The notes beneath the pieces were generated by a model. It was not told where the DNA came from and searched no databases. It saw nothing but the letters and a program-made list of their open reading frames with translations. A stretch of 64,000 bases of DNA from Candidatus Iainarchaeum sp. Lineage in GTDB: Archaea; Iainarchaeota; Iainarchaeia; Iainarchaeales; VGJJ01. Positions 25,400 through 29,537 of this stretch are shown here, one piece after another; position 1 is the first letter of the stretch; every line of letters starts with the position of its first letter. Location: positions 155,456 to 219,455 of the forward strand of contig CP064981.1 in the NCBI GenBank assembly GCA_016699555.1, written 5' to 3'. A program made the translations under genes and the position numbers.

Positions 25400-25918
25400 A
25401 TGGCGCCCACTCCCTCTTCGGTCCGCGAATCCAAGCGTGGTCAAGCGGCGATCCCGGATGTGATGTTTGCAGTGACGCTGTTCATGATCATCCTGGCCGG
25501 AATCTTTTATTTTCAGGGATCGATCGAGCGTGCGACGGAGCTGCAGTTCGAGCGGAAGACATTGGATACGACGACCGCGAATGTGGCGGAGTATCTCGTG
25601 AAGAATCCCGGCACGCCATCGGACTGGGAATTGCTGTCGGACTATAACGCGGTACAGTTCTTCGGGCTAGCACTACGCGATCGCGTGTTGGATCCGGATA
25701 AGCTCGTCGCCTTTGTGAATCTCGGAAACACGAACTATGATTTCCTGCGCGAAAAGCTGCGGCTCAGCCATTTTAACTACTACATCGAATTCACTGGGGG
25801 AGCGAATGTCGCGACGGGATTGGCCCCCATCGGGTCGGTGCAATCCAGCGTGGTACGGCGCTTCGTGACCGTGAATGGGATCGAGACCACAGTGACGGTG
25901 ACCATCTATGCCACATGA
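25400..25918 (+). CDS. Pilin-like protein (class III signal peptide)
   Basis: MAPTPSSVRESKRGQAAIPDVMFAVTLFMIILAGIFYF. Confidence 0.6.
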   Translation: MAPTPSSVRESKRGQAAIPDVMFAVTLFMIILAGIFYFQGSIERATELQFERKTLDTTTANVAEYLVKNPGTPSDWELLSDYNAVQFFGLALRDRVLDPDKLVAFVNLGNTNYDFLREKLRLSHFNYYIEFTGGANVATGLAPIGSVQSSVVRRFVTVNGIETTVTVTIYAT

Positions 25919-28900
25919 TTACTATTCCATTCCCTCGCAGAGGGGTTTTGCTTTCAGCGCAGACGTGGTGCTGGCCCTCATCCTGGTTTCAGCGGTAGCG
26001 CTGCTCGTCTCGTTGCCCAACCAACCCACTTCTTTCTTGGAGGAACGACGCGTGGCGGATCAGTATGTGGACGATATCTTTTTGGCCATGGACCATTCGG
26101 GTTTTGTCTCGAATGAGATCGATACCAATGGCTTTTCTTCGGCGACGCTGCAGAACATCTACTCCTACATCCGCACGCTCTTGCCGCCGCAGTACGATCT
26201 TTATGTGGAGCTGACGAGTTATCCCGTTGATGTCAACTCCTGCCAGTCGGCGCAAGATTTTTCTTCTTGCTTTCCCGATGCCAATCGCACGGCTCTCCAG
26301 CATGGAACGGCGCTTCCCAATTCGGCTCCATTCGTGCATGGGCGAAGGGTCTTCTTCAAGCAACAGCCTGCATCCCAATGCACGGGCGGATTGGCGCCGC
26401 ACGCGGGAGGGATCTATGCGCCTTATTCTCCGCCGCTTGCCTTGGCAGAGGATGCGAACATCAATTTCGATGTGAATATTTTTCCGGCAGGTCCATTGAC
26501 GTGCGACCAGAACATTACGGTTTCATTGACGGTAACCACCTCTTCGGGGACGCGCCGCCCGGTGGACATGATGTTGGTGTTCGACCGTTCAGGGAGCATG
26601 AGCTGGGGCGGTCAAGTGAGCACGACAGCAGCTATCGGCATCGAGGTGGACCAGAACTATGCATTTGTGGCGGATTCCACTGCGGGGTTGCGCGATTTGA
26701 ATGTGAGCAGTCCGGGGCTGCCATTGATCATGGGCACCTACAACTCTCCGGGGACCGCGAACGACGTGGACGTGAATGGAAATTATGCCTATCTCGCAGA
26801 TGGGAGTTCGGGATTGCGCATCGTGAATGTGACCAACAAAGCCTCTCCTTCTTCCACGAGTCAACTGGATGTAGGGGGAACGGCATATGGTGTGGCAAGC
26901 AGGGATGGCGTGACATATGTTTCGACGTACGATAACTCCAGCATCGACGTGGAAACGACGACGAACAATAGTCCGAATCAGAACCTCTATATCGGGAGGA
27001 GCTCTTCCCAAGCGAGTGCAGCGCAATCATTCGCGCCCGGAGTGGATTTCATTTCGGGCTTTAGCGTGCGCCTGCGCAAGGTGGGGAGTCCGCCCGACAT
27101 CACGGCGCATTTGCGCACGAGCATTTCGGGGAGCGATTTGAATAGTGTCACGATTGCCGCTTCCTCGGTAGGAACCTCTTCGAGCGGCGCCTATGTGGAC
27201 GTGAATTTCGCGGGGATGGTCCCACTCACGAGCGGAAGCACGTACTTCATCGTCCTCACGACCGCGTCCAACAGTTCATCGAACTACTACGAATGGAAAG
27301 CCCGCGGGAGCAGCCCATACTCTGGGGGACAGGCCTATCAGAATACGACTTCGCAGTCGTGGGACGCGTATTTGCGCACGTATTTCGTTCCGGGCCTCGT
27401 CGTTGTCGATACGAGCAACAAGGCTTCTCCGCGCGTGATCGGCGCTTCGGCGTTGGAGGATGCCTATCACATCGCGCTGAGCGGGGATTATGCCTATGCC
27501 GCGAATGGGACGAATGGATTCCGCATTTTCGATATCTCCGCTGCTCAGCCTAGCGTGGTAGGGAATTGCTCTACTGCTGCGGGGTGCAACATTTCGAGCG
27601 GCACGACGTATGATGTGTGGCCGAGCGGCAACTATGCGTATGTCGCGAATGGATCTCAAGGGTTGCGCGTCGTGAACATCTCCAATCCCGCATCGCCGAG
27701 TCTCGTTGCCACCTACAATACGCCCGGCACAGCCTACACGGTGCGCTTGAAGGATACGAATGCCATCGTTGCGGATGATAGCTCGTTGCAGGTAATAGAC
27801 GTGACAACGCCTGCTTCTCCGGCATTGGCGACGAGCTATGCAACCCCTTACAGTTATCGCGATCTTGAAGTCCAAGGGGAATGGGCTTACATCGCCGTCG
27901 ATTCTGGAATTCCGGGGGTCATCACGATCGACCTGCGCGTGGGTCCCAAGCTCAATCAAGCGAAGACTTCTGCGACCACGTTCGTGGACTTCAATGGATG
28001 GAATAGCTCCAGCGACCAGATGGGGCTCGTGAGCTTCTCGAGCAGCGCCACGCTGGATCAGGCGCTCACGAAGACGTATTCGCTCGTTGACACCGCAGTG
28101 AACAATCTGGTCTCGAATGGGGGCACGGCCGCAGGGGATGGCATCAATACTGCAACGACCCACTTTGGCACGGCACAGACGGATGTGAGCAATACGGGGA
28201 GCCAGAACCAGGTGTTGTACATCGGACAAAATTCCACGAACGAATCGGCGGTGCAGGCCTATCAGCCCGTGCTCCCCTATCTTTCGCGTGCGGACTTGTA
28301 CATCCGTCGCGTGGGAAATCCTTCCTCTCCTTTGGTCGTTGAATTGCGTTCGAGCATTTCGGGGAGCGCGATCGTGAGCGCGACGATTCCCGCTTCTTCG
28401 GTCGGAACGTCGTATGCGCTAGTCCAGGCGAACTTCAACACGACTTCCGTCACTCCGGGCACGACGTATTATTTGGTTGCGACCACTGCCACGAATAATG
28501 CCTCGAACTACTACCAGTGGGGCGCGAGCTCGAGCAATCCTTATTCGGGGGGACAAGCCTATCAGAATACGACTTTGCAGTCGACATGGGATGCGCGCTT
28601 CGCCACGTATGGGGGCTATACCAATCCCTCTGCGCTGAAGTTCCAAATCCTGCTGGGGGATGGCCAGACGAACTCGGGGGCCAATTCTTCGACGGCCGCC
28701 ATCACGGCAAGCAACAGTGGTATCATCATCTATACCATTGGTTTCGGAGAGGATGCGGATGCGAGTGAGTTGTCGAACATCGCGAGCCTGACGGGGGGCC
28801 AATACTATTATGCGGCGGACCAGAACGCGCTGAGCGCGGTCTATCAGCTGATCGCGCAAACCATTCAAGTGATTGCGCAGGATGCCAACATCTACACCAC

Positions 28901-29537
28901 TTTCGGAAACGGGACTGTTATCGTGGATGATGGGAATGGCACGGCAATAGGCAATGGCCTCATCTTTGATATCAATACGCTGGCGCCCCAGCCATGGGTC
29001 TCCAGTTACACGTTCAACATCCCTTGCACGACTACGCTGGCGTGCAGCTCGTCGCTTCTTTCCGTCCCCGGCAGTACGACGCAGTTCCAGTACCTGGATT
29101 CGAATGGCGTGCCGCAGGTCAAGGACTGGAATGAATTCATCACGACGCCATTCAATTACCGCGATTTGAACGTGGATATCCAGGCGGGAAATCTCATCAG
29201 CACCAACAATGTCGATCTCACGGTGCGCGTCATCAGCAATGGGACGCTGGACACGAATGGGACGAGCGTGAATTTCTATCGGGGAAATCCTTCTCCTTCG
29301 ACGCTAGTGGGTTCGCAGTCCATCCCCTTCCTGTGCGGCTCGCAATCTCCAGGGTGCTTGGCTTCGAGCTATTCGTTCACGCAAAACATCCCCGCGGAAG
29401 GGGATTTGTTCGCAGTGGTGAATCCTAGCGGTACGATTCCGGAATGCAGCTACAACAACCAGGACTTCATCTACTGCTACACCCGCCCCCAGACGCAGTT
29501 CTTCACACTGGACTACTGGGCATGGATCCGAGGGTGA
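25908..29537 (+). CDS. Giant pilin-like adhesin (1209 aa): class III signal peptide, VWA domain, LVIVD beta-propeller repeats, and a duplicated ~135-aa module
   Basis: N-terminus SQRGFAFSADVVLALILVSAVALLV. VWA MIDAS motif VDMMLVFDRSGSMSW. VWA continuation MGLVSFSSSATLD...GGTAAGDGINTA and IIIYTIGFGEDADASELSNIASLTGGQYYYA. LVIVD-type repeats such as GNYAYLADGSSGLRIVNVTNKASP and GNYAYVANGSQGLRVVNISNPASP. Internal repeat A at 26985-27390 and repeat B at 28216-28615. Confidence 0.7.
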   Translation: MPHDYYSIPSQRGFAFSADVVLALILVSAVALLVSLPNQPTSFLEERRVADQYVDDIFLAMDHSGFVSNEIDTNGFSSATLQNIYSYIRTLLPPQYDLYVELTSYPVDVNSCQSAQDFSSCFPDANRTALQHGTALPNSAPFVHGRRVFFKQQPASQCTGGLAPHAGGIYAPYSPPLALAEDANINFDVNIFPAGPLTCDQNITVSLTVTTSSGTRRPVDMMLVFDRSGSMSWGGQVSTTAAIGIEVDQNYAFVADSTAGLRDLNVSSPGLPLIMGTYNSPGTANDVDVNGNYAYLADGSSGLRIVNVTNKASPSSTSQLDVGGTAYGVASRDGVTYVSTYDNSSIDVETTTNNSPNQNLYIGRSSSQASAAQSFAPGVDFISGFSVRLRKVGSPPDITAHLRTSISGSDLNSVTIAASSVGTSSSGAYVDVNFAGMVPLTSGSTYFIVLTTASNSSSNYYEWKARGSSPYSGGQAYQNTTSQSWDAYLRTYFVPGLVVVDTSNKASPRVIGASALEDAYHIALSGDYAYAANGTNGFRIFDISAAQPSVVGNCSTAAGCNISSGTTYDVWPSGNYAYVANGSQGLRVVNISNPASPSLVATYNTPGTAYTVRLKDTNAIVADDSSLQVIDVTTPASPALATSYATPYSYRDLEVQGEWAYIAVDSGIPGVITIDLRVGPKLNQAKTSATTFVDFNGWNSSSDQMGLVSFSSSATLDQALTKTYSLVDTAVNNLVSNGGTAAGDGINTATTHFGTAQTDVSNTGSQNQVLYIGQNSTNESAVQAYQPVLPYLSRADLYIRRVGNPSSPLVVELRSSISGSAIVSATIPASSVGTSYALVQANFNTTSVTPGTTYYLVATTATNNASNYYQWGASSSNPYSGGQAYQNTTLQSTWDARFATYGGYTNPSALKFQILLGDGQTNSGANSSTAAITASNSGIIIYTIGFGEDADASELSNIASLTGGQYYYAADQNALSAVYQLIAQTIQVIAQDANIYTTFGNGTVIVDDGNGTAIGNGLIFDINTLAPQPWVSSYTFNIPCTTTLACSSSLLSVPGSTTQFQYLDSNGVPQVKDWNEFITTPFNYRDLNVDIQAGNLISTNNVDLTVRVISNGTLDTNGTSVNFYRGNPSPSTLVGSQSIPFLCGSQSPGCLASSYSFTQNIPAEGDLFAVVNPSGTIPECSYNNQDFIYCYTRPQTQFFTLDYWAWIRG

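Follow-up and report, generated by a model that had tools for sequence, protein, structure and literature searches.

The window analysed here is a 64,000-nucleotide stretch of a Candidatus Iainarchaeum genome (contig CP064981.1), and the gene of interest occupies positions 25908..29537 of its + strand. According to the ORF list and its translation, it encodes a 1209-residue protein that we describe as a putative modular, pilin-like VWA/propeller adhesin; the ORF and all of the peptides quoted from it in a preliminary description of this DNA were located in the translation. The gene sits in a conserved operon with pilin-like genes, a T2SSE-family ATPase and two T2SSF-family platform proteins. 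Upstream, on the + strand and in the same operon, translation reveals a pilin-like ORF with the motif RGQ|VAFEY (22196-22642), a pilin-like ORF of 528 residues with RAQ|VATE (22639-24225), a transmembrane (TM) protein (24051-25394) and a pilin-like ORF with KRGQ|AAIPDV and a weak Pfam match to DUF7287 (25319-25918). The gene order of this block (22196..25918) is identical in two relatives, L001 and L002. The downstream block (29542..32504, + strand) encodes a pilin-like 329-residue protein (EKG|ILFTF), a 376-residue TM protein with a weak PKD match and a Pro/Ala-rich 272-residue protein; 34 of the 35 related loci that have long flanks contain a homolog of the 329-residue gene. The ATPase gene (32526-34073; Pfam T2SSE, 8.9e-39) and the two platform genes (34086-34979 and 34979-36001; Pfam T2SSF, 4.3e-15 and 1e-13) lie 3-6 kb downstream of the adhesin gene on the same strand. 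Among the 35 related loci, the ATPase and the two platform genes are found within 8 kb in 29, 28 and 27, respectively, and this linkage to type IV pilus (T4P) genes also holds in L001 and L002. Beyond them lies a KaiC-family ATPase gene (36035..36751, - strand; Pfam PF06745, 3.8e-59), of a type often seen alongside T4P loci in archaea (Makarova et al. 2016, PMC4858521). It is followed by a gene for a 154-residue candidate major pilin (36867..37331, + strand), recognised from its sequence, VRGQ|SALEYLMTYGWALVVIVIAVAALVIL; this gene is conserved in L002, and its product shows no Pfam pilin match. No gene for a peptidase A24 (prepilin peptidase) was found among the scanned ORFs of the window.

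The N-terminus of the 1209-residue protein reads MPHDYYSIPSQRG|FAFSADVVLALILVSAVALLVSL, with a putative cleavage site preceding F14. It resembles a class III signal peptide (25908..26015, + strand), with a short charged leader (residues 1-13) ending in QRG, a form of [KR][GA], and a hydrophobic stretch of about 20 residues in a helix (residues 14-36, FAFSADVVLALILVSAVALLVSL). In a regular-expression survey of the family, 36 of 62 N-termini have [KR][GA] directly before F and a hydrophobic run of at least 15 residues, and most of those with the [KR][GA]|F motif carry an acidic residue at +6. The following alpha/beta domain (residues 37-215; 26016..26552, + strand) has two Cys pairs and is pilin-like by topology only. 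In the AF2 secondary structure, helices at 2-24, 26-34 and 38-51 precede strands; the long helix runs on from the TM segment to residue 64, and further helices and then strands follow, with model residues 122-142 predicted at low confidence. This domain has neither a Pfam match nor a PDB sequence match, and Pfam pilin models do not match any part of the protein. The pilin-like N-terminus proposed in the preliminary description is plausible and agrees with the gene context. Enrichment of sequons, sought as a sign of glycosylation, is not significant.

A single VWA domain follows in three pieces. The first piece (26553..26609, + strand; Pfam on the spliced sequence) comprises beta1 and the first MIDAS loop, D226-x-S228-x-S230, and contains VDMMLVFDRSGSMSW (residues 219-233, nt 26562-26606). 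The second (residues 677-756; 27936..28175, + strand) comprises alpha1, beta2, beta3, alpha2, alpha3 and the MIDAS residue Thr740, and includes MGLVSFSSSATLD (residues 705-717) and GGTAAGDGINTA (residues 738-749). The third (residues 905-992; 28620..28883, + strand) contributes beta4 with MIDAS Asp918, alpha4, beta5, alpha5, beta6 and alpha6, and includes IIIYTIGFGEDADASELSNIASLTGGQYYYA (residues 939-969). The native sequence matches Pfam VWA (PF00092) in two stretches (E 9.7e-13, 49.1 bits against a cut-off of 23.8), whereas the spliced pieces score 78.2 bits and cover profile positions 1-171 of 174 once and co-linearly. DxSxS, the MIDAS Thr and the MIDAS Asp each occur once in the whole protein, and together they complete a MIDAS of D226, S228, S230, T740 and D918. 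The quintet DSSTD is found in 67 of the 68 family members; S228, G229, S230 and M231 are invariant and D226 is at least 90% conserved in the 68 sequences. In the AF2 model, beta1 is a strand at model residues 179-186 (block pLDDT 96), and the Rossmann-like alpha/beta VWA fold reassembles from the pieces. Pfam, the spliced profile and AF2 thus agree with the earlier proposal of one VWA domain cut by an LVIVD propeller and cut again by the second copy of a duplicated module.

The larger insert is an LVIVD beta-propeller of about seven blades, which enters the VWA domain between beta1 and alpha1, 2-5 residues past the DxSxS loop. Its first part (residues 235-350; 26610..26957, + strand; blades 1-3) includes GNYAYLADGSSGLRIVNVTNKASP (residues 291-314), and its second part (residues 495-676; 27390..27935, + strand) holds blades 3-7; both were delimited from Pfam LVIVD matches, AF2 strands and Foldseek. 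Pfam detects six LVIVD (PF08309) repeats (E 1.6e-39). The number of blades is a count from secondary structure, in which AF2 places 28 strands as seven groups of four. The top Foldseek matches in the PDB are all propellers, such as the designed 8-blade Tako8 (TM 0.63 on the target). LVIVD repeats had been reported over some 450 residues; the repeats are real, but this extent divides into a propeller of about 290 residues and a module of 145 residues.

That module occurs in two paralogous copies, both DUF4082-like beta-sandwiches. Copy A (residues 351-494; 26958..27389, + strand; BLASTP against copy B) sits in a hairpin of propeller blade 3, and copy B (residues 757-904; 28176..28619, + strand) in the VWA alpha3-beta4 loop. 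The two are 51% identical over 144 residues (BLASTP E 4e-45), far above chance. Only two patches of 76-78% identity are left at the DNA level, so the copies go back to an ancient duplication rather than to a repeat created in assembly. Copy A is a clean indel relative to the module-less homolog P0025, and copy B is a clean indel of 147 residues relative to P0013. BLASTP, indels and AF2 thus uphold the preliminary description of one module copy inside the propeller and one inside the VWA domain, except that the repeat it gave for the second begins, in frame, at nt 28215 instead of 28216. A module profile finds no further copies in the six frames of the window. Natural variants of the family carry zero, one, two or three modules, and a neighbor-joining tree hints that insertion at the VWA site arose twice.

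The preliminary description could name no family for this module, a claim that falls by its own terms, since the module can be assigned to DUF4082 via sister proteins. Homologous copies in P0005, P0027 and P0033 score 30.1, 39.9 and 49.2 bits, above the PF13313 gathering score of 28.4, and are co-linear with PF13313 over profile positions ~13-113. In total, 23 of 36 family modules match DUF4082 at E<0.01. Copies A and B themselves are too divergent to match PF13313 even at E 10, and a direct Pfam scan of them gave nothing useful (SpaA_3 at E 0.42); their membership, as judged from sequence relationships, is transitive and at the superfamily level. In an exhaustive search of representatives, the module profile recovers 11,297 protein clusters, and P0125, found in this way, scores 55.8 bits on DUF4082. 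A word-index search that started from the module alignment found just three small proteins standing on their own and not even the parent family, apparently because of the limits of such an index, and among PDB sequences the profile gave a chance match only (1htl, E 0.49). In other proteins DUF4082 occurs as repeat domains in tandem arrays of secreted or surface proteins, whereas here it is a nested insert. DUF4082 is itself functionally uncharacterised, and the family name therefore explains little. A Foldseek search of a fragment against viral structures returned many phage minor-tail, collagen-like fibre and DUF4815 proteins, in matches whose aligned regions are unreported; they hint weakly at a likeness between the sandwich and the receptor-binding modules of phages.

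The remaining part of the protein is an all-beta region by AF2 secondary structure (residues 993-1209; 28884..29534, + strand) with three conserved Cys pairs and no Pfam match; the model suggests that it is probably two sandwich domains. The adhesin family has 68 members, the nearest relative being 86% identical, and its database label is already "VWA domain-containing protein". Its members occur in roughly 60 genomes of Iainarchaeota and Micrarchaeota, counted at species level. The nested architecture is common to the 68 clusters, which stem from independent assemblies; one of these is the closed genome of archaeon GW2011_AR10 (CP010424). The nesting, earlier called unusual, is so structurally, yet an entire DPANN protein family shares it as its standard design. 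In the literature searched, no publication joins LVIVD and VWA in such a sense.

Several known systems resemble this protein in part. Streptococcus sanguinis has type IV pilins of modular build, with a vWA module in PilB and a lectin module in PilC. PilB, however, is bacterial and has an uninterrupted VWA domain directly after the pilin moiety, whereas the present protein is archaeal, three times larger, without sequence similarity outside the VWA core, and has a propeller and a sandwich nested in its VWA domain. A tip "effector" role has been described for PilC/PilY1 (PMC9934059). In Gram-negative type IV pili, PilY1/PilC is a large tip adhesin that pairs a VWA domain with a beta-propeller and acts together with minor pilins. 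PilY1 is not a pilin, though, its VWA domain and propeller are in tandem and not nested, and no PilY1 chain is among the PDB sequence matches of the protein or of the family profile. We regard this likeness as an analogy, without demonstrated homology. The sortase-pilus proteins RrgA, GBS104, SpaC and PitA and the type V pilus protein Mfa5 are also VWA tip adhesins, but they are anchored by sortase or strand exchange instead of a pilin helix, and their VWA inserts are short arms instead of autonomous propeller or jelly-roll domains. In integrins, the beta-propeller of the alpha subunit and MIDAS-bearing VWA domains (I and beta-I) are likewise joined into one ligand-binding head with the help of domain nesting. 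There the VWA domain (alpha-I) lies inside an FG-GAP propeller, whereas here an LVIVD propeller lies inside the VWA domain, and nothing indicates common descent. We consider the protein an unusual form of a known adhesin type and not a new sort of system.

The full explanation that we favor, and hold to be fairly probable, is that the gene product is a type IV pilin-like adhesin of modular build from a DPANN archaeon, probably serving as the adhesive head of the pilus. A prepilin peptidase would cut after Gly13, and the hydrophobic N-terminal helix would then insert the protein into the pilus. Because of its bulk (~125 kDa), the tip would be its most likely position, alongside the neighboring small pilin-like proteins, by analogy with the placement of S. 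sanguinis PilB/PilC and Gram-negative PilY1 with minor pilins. The ligand, carried by another cell or surface, may be bound through an acidic group by the MIDAS metal ion. Since the propeller is tethered to the MIDAS loop by no more than 2 and 5 residues, it must sit at the same end of the VWA domain as the MIDAS, where it would probably be part of the binding surface. The DUF4082 sandwiches may serve as optional accessory binding modules, possibly for glycans, which were added, duplicated or lost as the family evolved and would thereby tune specificity.

The main competing explanation, clearly less probable in our judgment but to be taken seriously, is an adhesin held at the membrane or S-layer that never enters a filament, its N-terminal helix being a signal anchor and the pilus genes merely co-regulated. 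It would account for the missing pilin HMM match and for a cleavage motif atypical for archaea. LVIVD proteins are also generally found at the cell surface with other anchors, and more distant matches carry PGF-pre-PGF, S-layer homology or T9SS sorting domains. No other anchor domain occurs at the C-terminus of the family, however, and the [KR][GA]|F motif with its hydrophobic run (36/62) and, in most cases, an acidic residue at +6 is similar to the G|FxxxE seen in true type IV pilins. Moreover, the gene stands among four or five pilin-like genes, with ATPase and platform genes linked in 27-29 of 35 loci. We find it improbable that the protein is a structural or assembly part of the pilus, such as an anchor or primer of the kind suggested for bacterial TadG or a regulator like the ArnB-type VWA proteins of archaella, instead of an adhesin. 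[quoted passage not shown] The present protein, on the other hand, has a secretion signal, paired cysteines, a surface-type LVIVD propeller and DUF4082, and no TadE/Tad Pfam family is among its matches at E up to 1. An intact, invariant MIDAS combined with variable modules is what a ligand-binding head exposed to diversifying pressure shows. A role in priming would not preclude one in adhesion.

It is hardly credible that the split is an artefact, whether of two separate, incomplete VWA-like regions, of a chimera made in assembly or of an ORF fused by a frameshift. The two stretches and modest score of the native Pfam match would suit it, but the spliced pieces cover the profile only once around a single MIDAS set, and the same design recurs across independent assemblies with confident AF2 models. 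That MIDAS set, the co-linear splice and the 68 clusters rule out an assembly chimera as well as a second, independent VWA domain.

A bolder reading, which goes beyond the modular pilin-like adhesin and which we consider rather unlikely, is that the propeller-in-VWA head forms a single-chain, integrin-like composite site with which Iainarchaeota and Micrarchaeota would recognise host cells and keep hold of them at the pilus tip. The propeller and the metal ion would share a ligand pocket, and the DUF4082 sandwiches would set host or glycan specificity. If true, the protein would be what determines host recognition in a DPANN lineage, and the propeller-plus-VWA adhesion head known from integrins and PilY1 would have been invented here independently.

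The family offers a natural case of two-level nesting, with a sandwich inside a propeller inside a VWA domain, and its zero- to three-module variants are useful for studying insertion tolerance and for protein engineering. As far as the searched literature shows, it also widens the "modular pilin" concept, so far one of Gram-positive bacteria, to include archaea. Almost nothing is known of the attachment molecules of DPANN archaea, tiny organisms of which many are believed to need contact with other cells. This adhesin family, conserved and linked to pilus genes, is a concrete candidate for such a molecule.

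The adhesin is encoded by the plus-strand ORF at 25908-29537 (1,209 aa, from the ORF listing and translation), and all the peptides quoted from it in the preliminary description were found, at the reported positions or a few bases off. From the N-terminus, it contains a class III-like signal (QRG/FAFSAD...) with a hydrophobic helix (aa 1-36), an alpha/beta domain with two Cys pairs that matches no family (aa 37-215), the VWA strand beta1 with the DxSxS motif (aa 216-234), an LVIVD propeller in two parts (aa 235-350 and 495-676; about seven blades, as counted from the strand pattern), module A in the hairpin of blade 3 between the 'yAYvA' and 'GLxvvD' strands (aa 351-494), the second VWA piece (aa 677-756), module B (aa 757-904), the third VWA piece (aa 905-992), and an all-beta C-terminal region with three conserved Cys pairs, also matching no family (aa 993-1209). 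Pfam detects six LVIVD repeats (E = 1.6e-39), VWA in two stretches (E = 9.7e-13) and additionally VWA_2 at aa 681-763. The linkers are very short, with 2 and 5 residues at the propeller and 2 and 6 at module B.

It is evident that the VWA pieces are one domain split by insertions, as the preliminary description had proposed; splicing, a natural deletion series and conservation each bear this out independently. When aa 212-234, 676-757 and 905-992 were joined in silico, the resulting 193 aa matched Pfam VWA in one stretch (profile positions 1-171 of 174, 78.2 bits), whereas the native adhesin scores 49.1 bits over two stretches; the spliced sequence also matched solved VWA domains (best E = 8.8e-16). 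In global alignments, the 925-aa homologue P0025, which lacks both modules, is co-linear with the adhesin save for two clean gaps (aa ~339-495 and ~754-905), and the 1,056-aa homologue P0013 shows the second gap only (aa 758-904). The VWA of P0025 reads '...GGTATGTAINTATTEL-NGPNH-NLNSLKFQVLLSDGQTN', an ordinary alpha3-loop-beta4 connection. Among the 68 aligned family sequences, the propeller that separates the DxSxS loop from helix alpha1 has 277-307 residues in all members, and the MIDAS quintet (D226, S228, S230, T740 and D918), parted by inserts of ~450 and ~150 residues, is DSSTD in 67. In the VWA fold the MIDAS lies on beta-to-alpha loops and the alpha-to-beta loops are at the opposite end, from which we infer a propeller on the MIDAS side of the domain and module B on the side away from it.

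The two module copies (aa ~351-494 and ~757-904) are real and share 51% identity over 144 residues (BLASTP E = 4e-45), although the range first reported for the second was one base out of frame. Their DNA likeness is limited to two patches of 76-78% identity; the duplication is therefore old and not an assembly repeat. When all six reading frames of the window were searched with a module profile, no third copy turned up. Contrary to the preliminary description, the module is not without a nameable family. The window copies have no direct Pfam match, but their co-linear counterparts in P0005, P0027 and P0033 score above the gathering threshold of DUF4082 (PF13313), and 23 of 36 non-redundant family modules match it at E<0.01; a few also match PHR, 'Lectin_like' or Kre9/KNH weakly. 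An exhaustive search of 1.84 billion cluster representatives with the module HMM returned 11,297 proteins at E<=1e-3 (2,645 at E<=1e-10), many with several and up to 19 copies. Sampled carriers pair the module with PKD, Big, dockerin or a siphovirus Gp37-like tail protein, and DUF4082 recognizes two of them. By these matches the module belongs, as a divergent member, to a surface-protein domain that is very widespread and functionally uncharacterized; sequence searches detect no solved structure for the module. Three stand-alone proteins of 189-205 aa from other metagenomes (P0121, P0122 and P0123) consist essentially of one DUF4082-like module each, P0121 with a precomputed 'Lectin_like' (PF18560) match, and may help in finding what the module binds.

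The modules vary across the family: 21 members have none, 34 have site A only, 10 have A and B, two have tandem A-A and one has A-A plus B, and site B was never occupied alone among the 68. In an NJ tree without support values, the B-site modules of the window clade branch from within that clade's A-site modules, and a second B-site group (P0027/33/34/56) falls elsewhere, a hint that a module was copied within the gene into the VWA loop, perhaps on more than one occasion.

The adhesin gene lies in a pilus operon. Upstream on the plus strand are three ORFs with [KR][GA]Q/hydrophobic N-termini (22196-22642, 22639-24225 and 25319-25918) and a TM protein (24051-25394; 389 aa as called in the locus of a close relative, L002). 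A pilin-like ORF follows directly downstream (29542-30531, plus strand), then a TM protein that weakly matches PKD, a Pro/Ala-rich protein, a T2SSE ATPase (8.9e-39; 32526-34073, 515 aa, without intein) and two T2SSF platform proteins. Beyond these come a minus-strand KaiC-family ATPase and a candidate major pilin of 154 aa (VRGQ/SALEYL...). The gene order is the same at P0002 (84% identical) and at P0025, where the ATPase (930 aa; 15876-18668 of locus L001, GCA_016198125.1) contains an intein that bears a LAGLIDADG endonuclease (PF14890, PF14528). Besides the adhesin, the operon encodes a second large pilin-like protein (22639-24225; 528 aa, MNSTRAQ/VATEILLSILILLLVF...), which has no detectable family and, with homologues in just 11 of the 35 related loci, is less conserved than the adhesin. 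The upstream TM protein gives weak TrmB-regulator and PLD-like matches (4.9e-05 and 2.8e-03); its C-terminal part is rich in Cys. The 272-aa Pro/Ala/Thr-rich protein immediately before the ATPase (31686-32504, plus strand) has a structured C-terminus of ~60 aa, possibly winged-helix, and no family, its only match being DDRGK at E = 0.0099.

The remainder of the window holds archaeal housekeeping genes (aIF2-gamma, aIF5B-like, Kae1/TsaD and Tyw1-like). On the minus strand, a 1,283-aa ORF (14103-17954) has no Pfam family at E<=1e-3 and is uncharacterized but conserved, as a 1,279-aa gene at the equivalent place in L002 (1-1655); a tyrosine recombinase (11646-12572; Phage_integrase 5.3e-48, N-terminal SAM-like domain) may be either a XerA-like housekeeping enzyme or the sign of a mobile element; and a CARDB-domain protein of 411 aa (230-1465; CARDB 1.5e-10), adjoining an ABC-transporter ATPase (1462-2205), is predicted to be a further surface protein encoded in this small genome.

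Scanning one genome for each GTDB species yielded 73 loci with adhesin relatives, about 60 of them full-length or nearly so. These are overwhelmingly labeled Candidatus Iainarchaeum, Diapherotrites, Micrarchaeota or 'archaeon', and the closed genome CP010424 (archaeon GW2011_AR10) is among them. Among 35 loci with long flanks, the ATPase is present in 29, the platform genes in 28 and 27, and flanking pilin-like genes in 28 and 34. A few relatives are on short contigs binned as bacteria; the full-length ones on 5-18 kb contigs labeled Bacteroidota, Chloroflexi and Falkowbacteria (L027, L041 and L057) are probably mis-binned DPANN contigs, and transfer to CPR or other bacteria is possible. One Iainarchaeum MAG (RIFCSPLOWO2_01_FULL_AR10_48_17) has two divergent paralogues on different contigs (JAGVWC010000011.1 and JAGVWC010000014.1), 34% and 27% identical to the window adhesin, suggesting that a single cell may have two or more pilus adhesins in some lineages.

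The architecture of the adhesin is real, and we give practically no credence to an artefact. By analogy with PilB (vWA) and PilC (lectin) of S. sanguinis, the adhesin is rather probably a modular pilin. In that system, bulky modules on a pilin moiety fit only at the filament tip with minor pilins (PMC9934059), and the bulky modules of the adhesin would likewise place it at the tip beside other minor pilins. In a regex survey, 36 of 62 family N-termini showed [KR][GA]/F ahead of a hydrophobic stretch of at least 15 residues, most also with an acidic residue at +6, reminiscent of bacterial G/FxxxE. No pilin HMM matches the adhesin and no prepilin peptidase was found among the scanned window ORFs, as would be expected of a membrane-anchored adhesin outside the pilus, which we regard as unlikely. 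An assembly or anchoring role like that of TadG or ArnB is more doubtful still; Makarova et al. (2016) limited their treatment of VWA to ArnB-type regulators and TadG (PMC4858521). For the modular pilin, the practically invariant MIDAS speaks for ligand binding that depends on a metal, and the constant propeller beside it, together with variable DUF4082 modules, speaks for a composite, tunable binding head.

VWA heads are familiar from the pilus adhesins PilB, PilY1, RrgA, GBS104, SpaC, PitA and Mfa5, and several of these were structural neighbors in a structure search; the adhesin system therefore works like a known kind. It differs from them in the complete propeller inserted into the MIDAS loop, in the second level of nesting and in its host lineage, the DPANN archaea. 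Compared with integrin alpha-I, the arrangement is reversed, with the propeller inside the VWA. Family proteins are named 'VWA domain-containing protein' or 'LVIVD repeat protein' in databases, and no prior description of a nested VWA/propeller adhesin was found in the literature searched. If a composite integrin-like site or host attachment proves true, the adhesin would be of greater interest.
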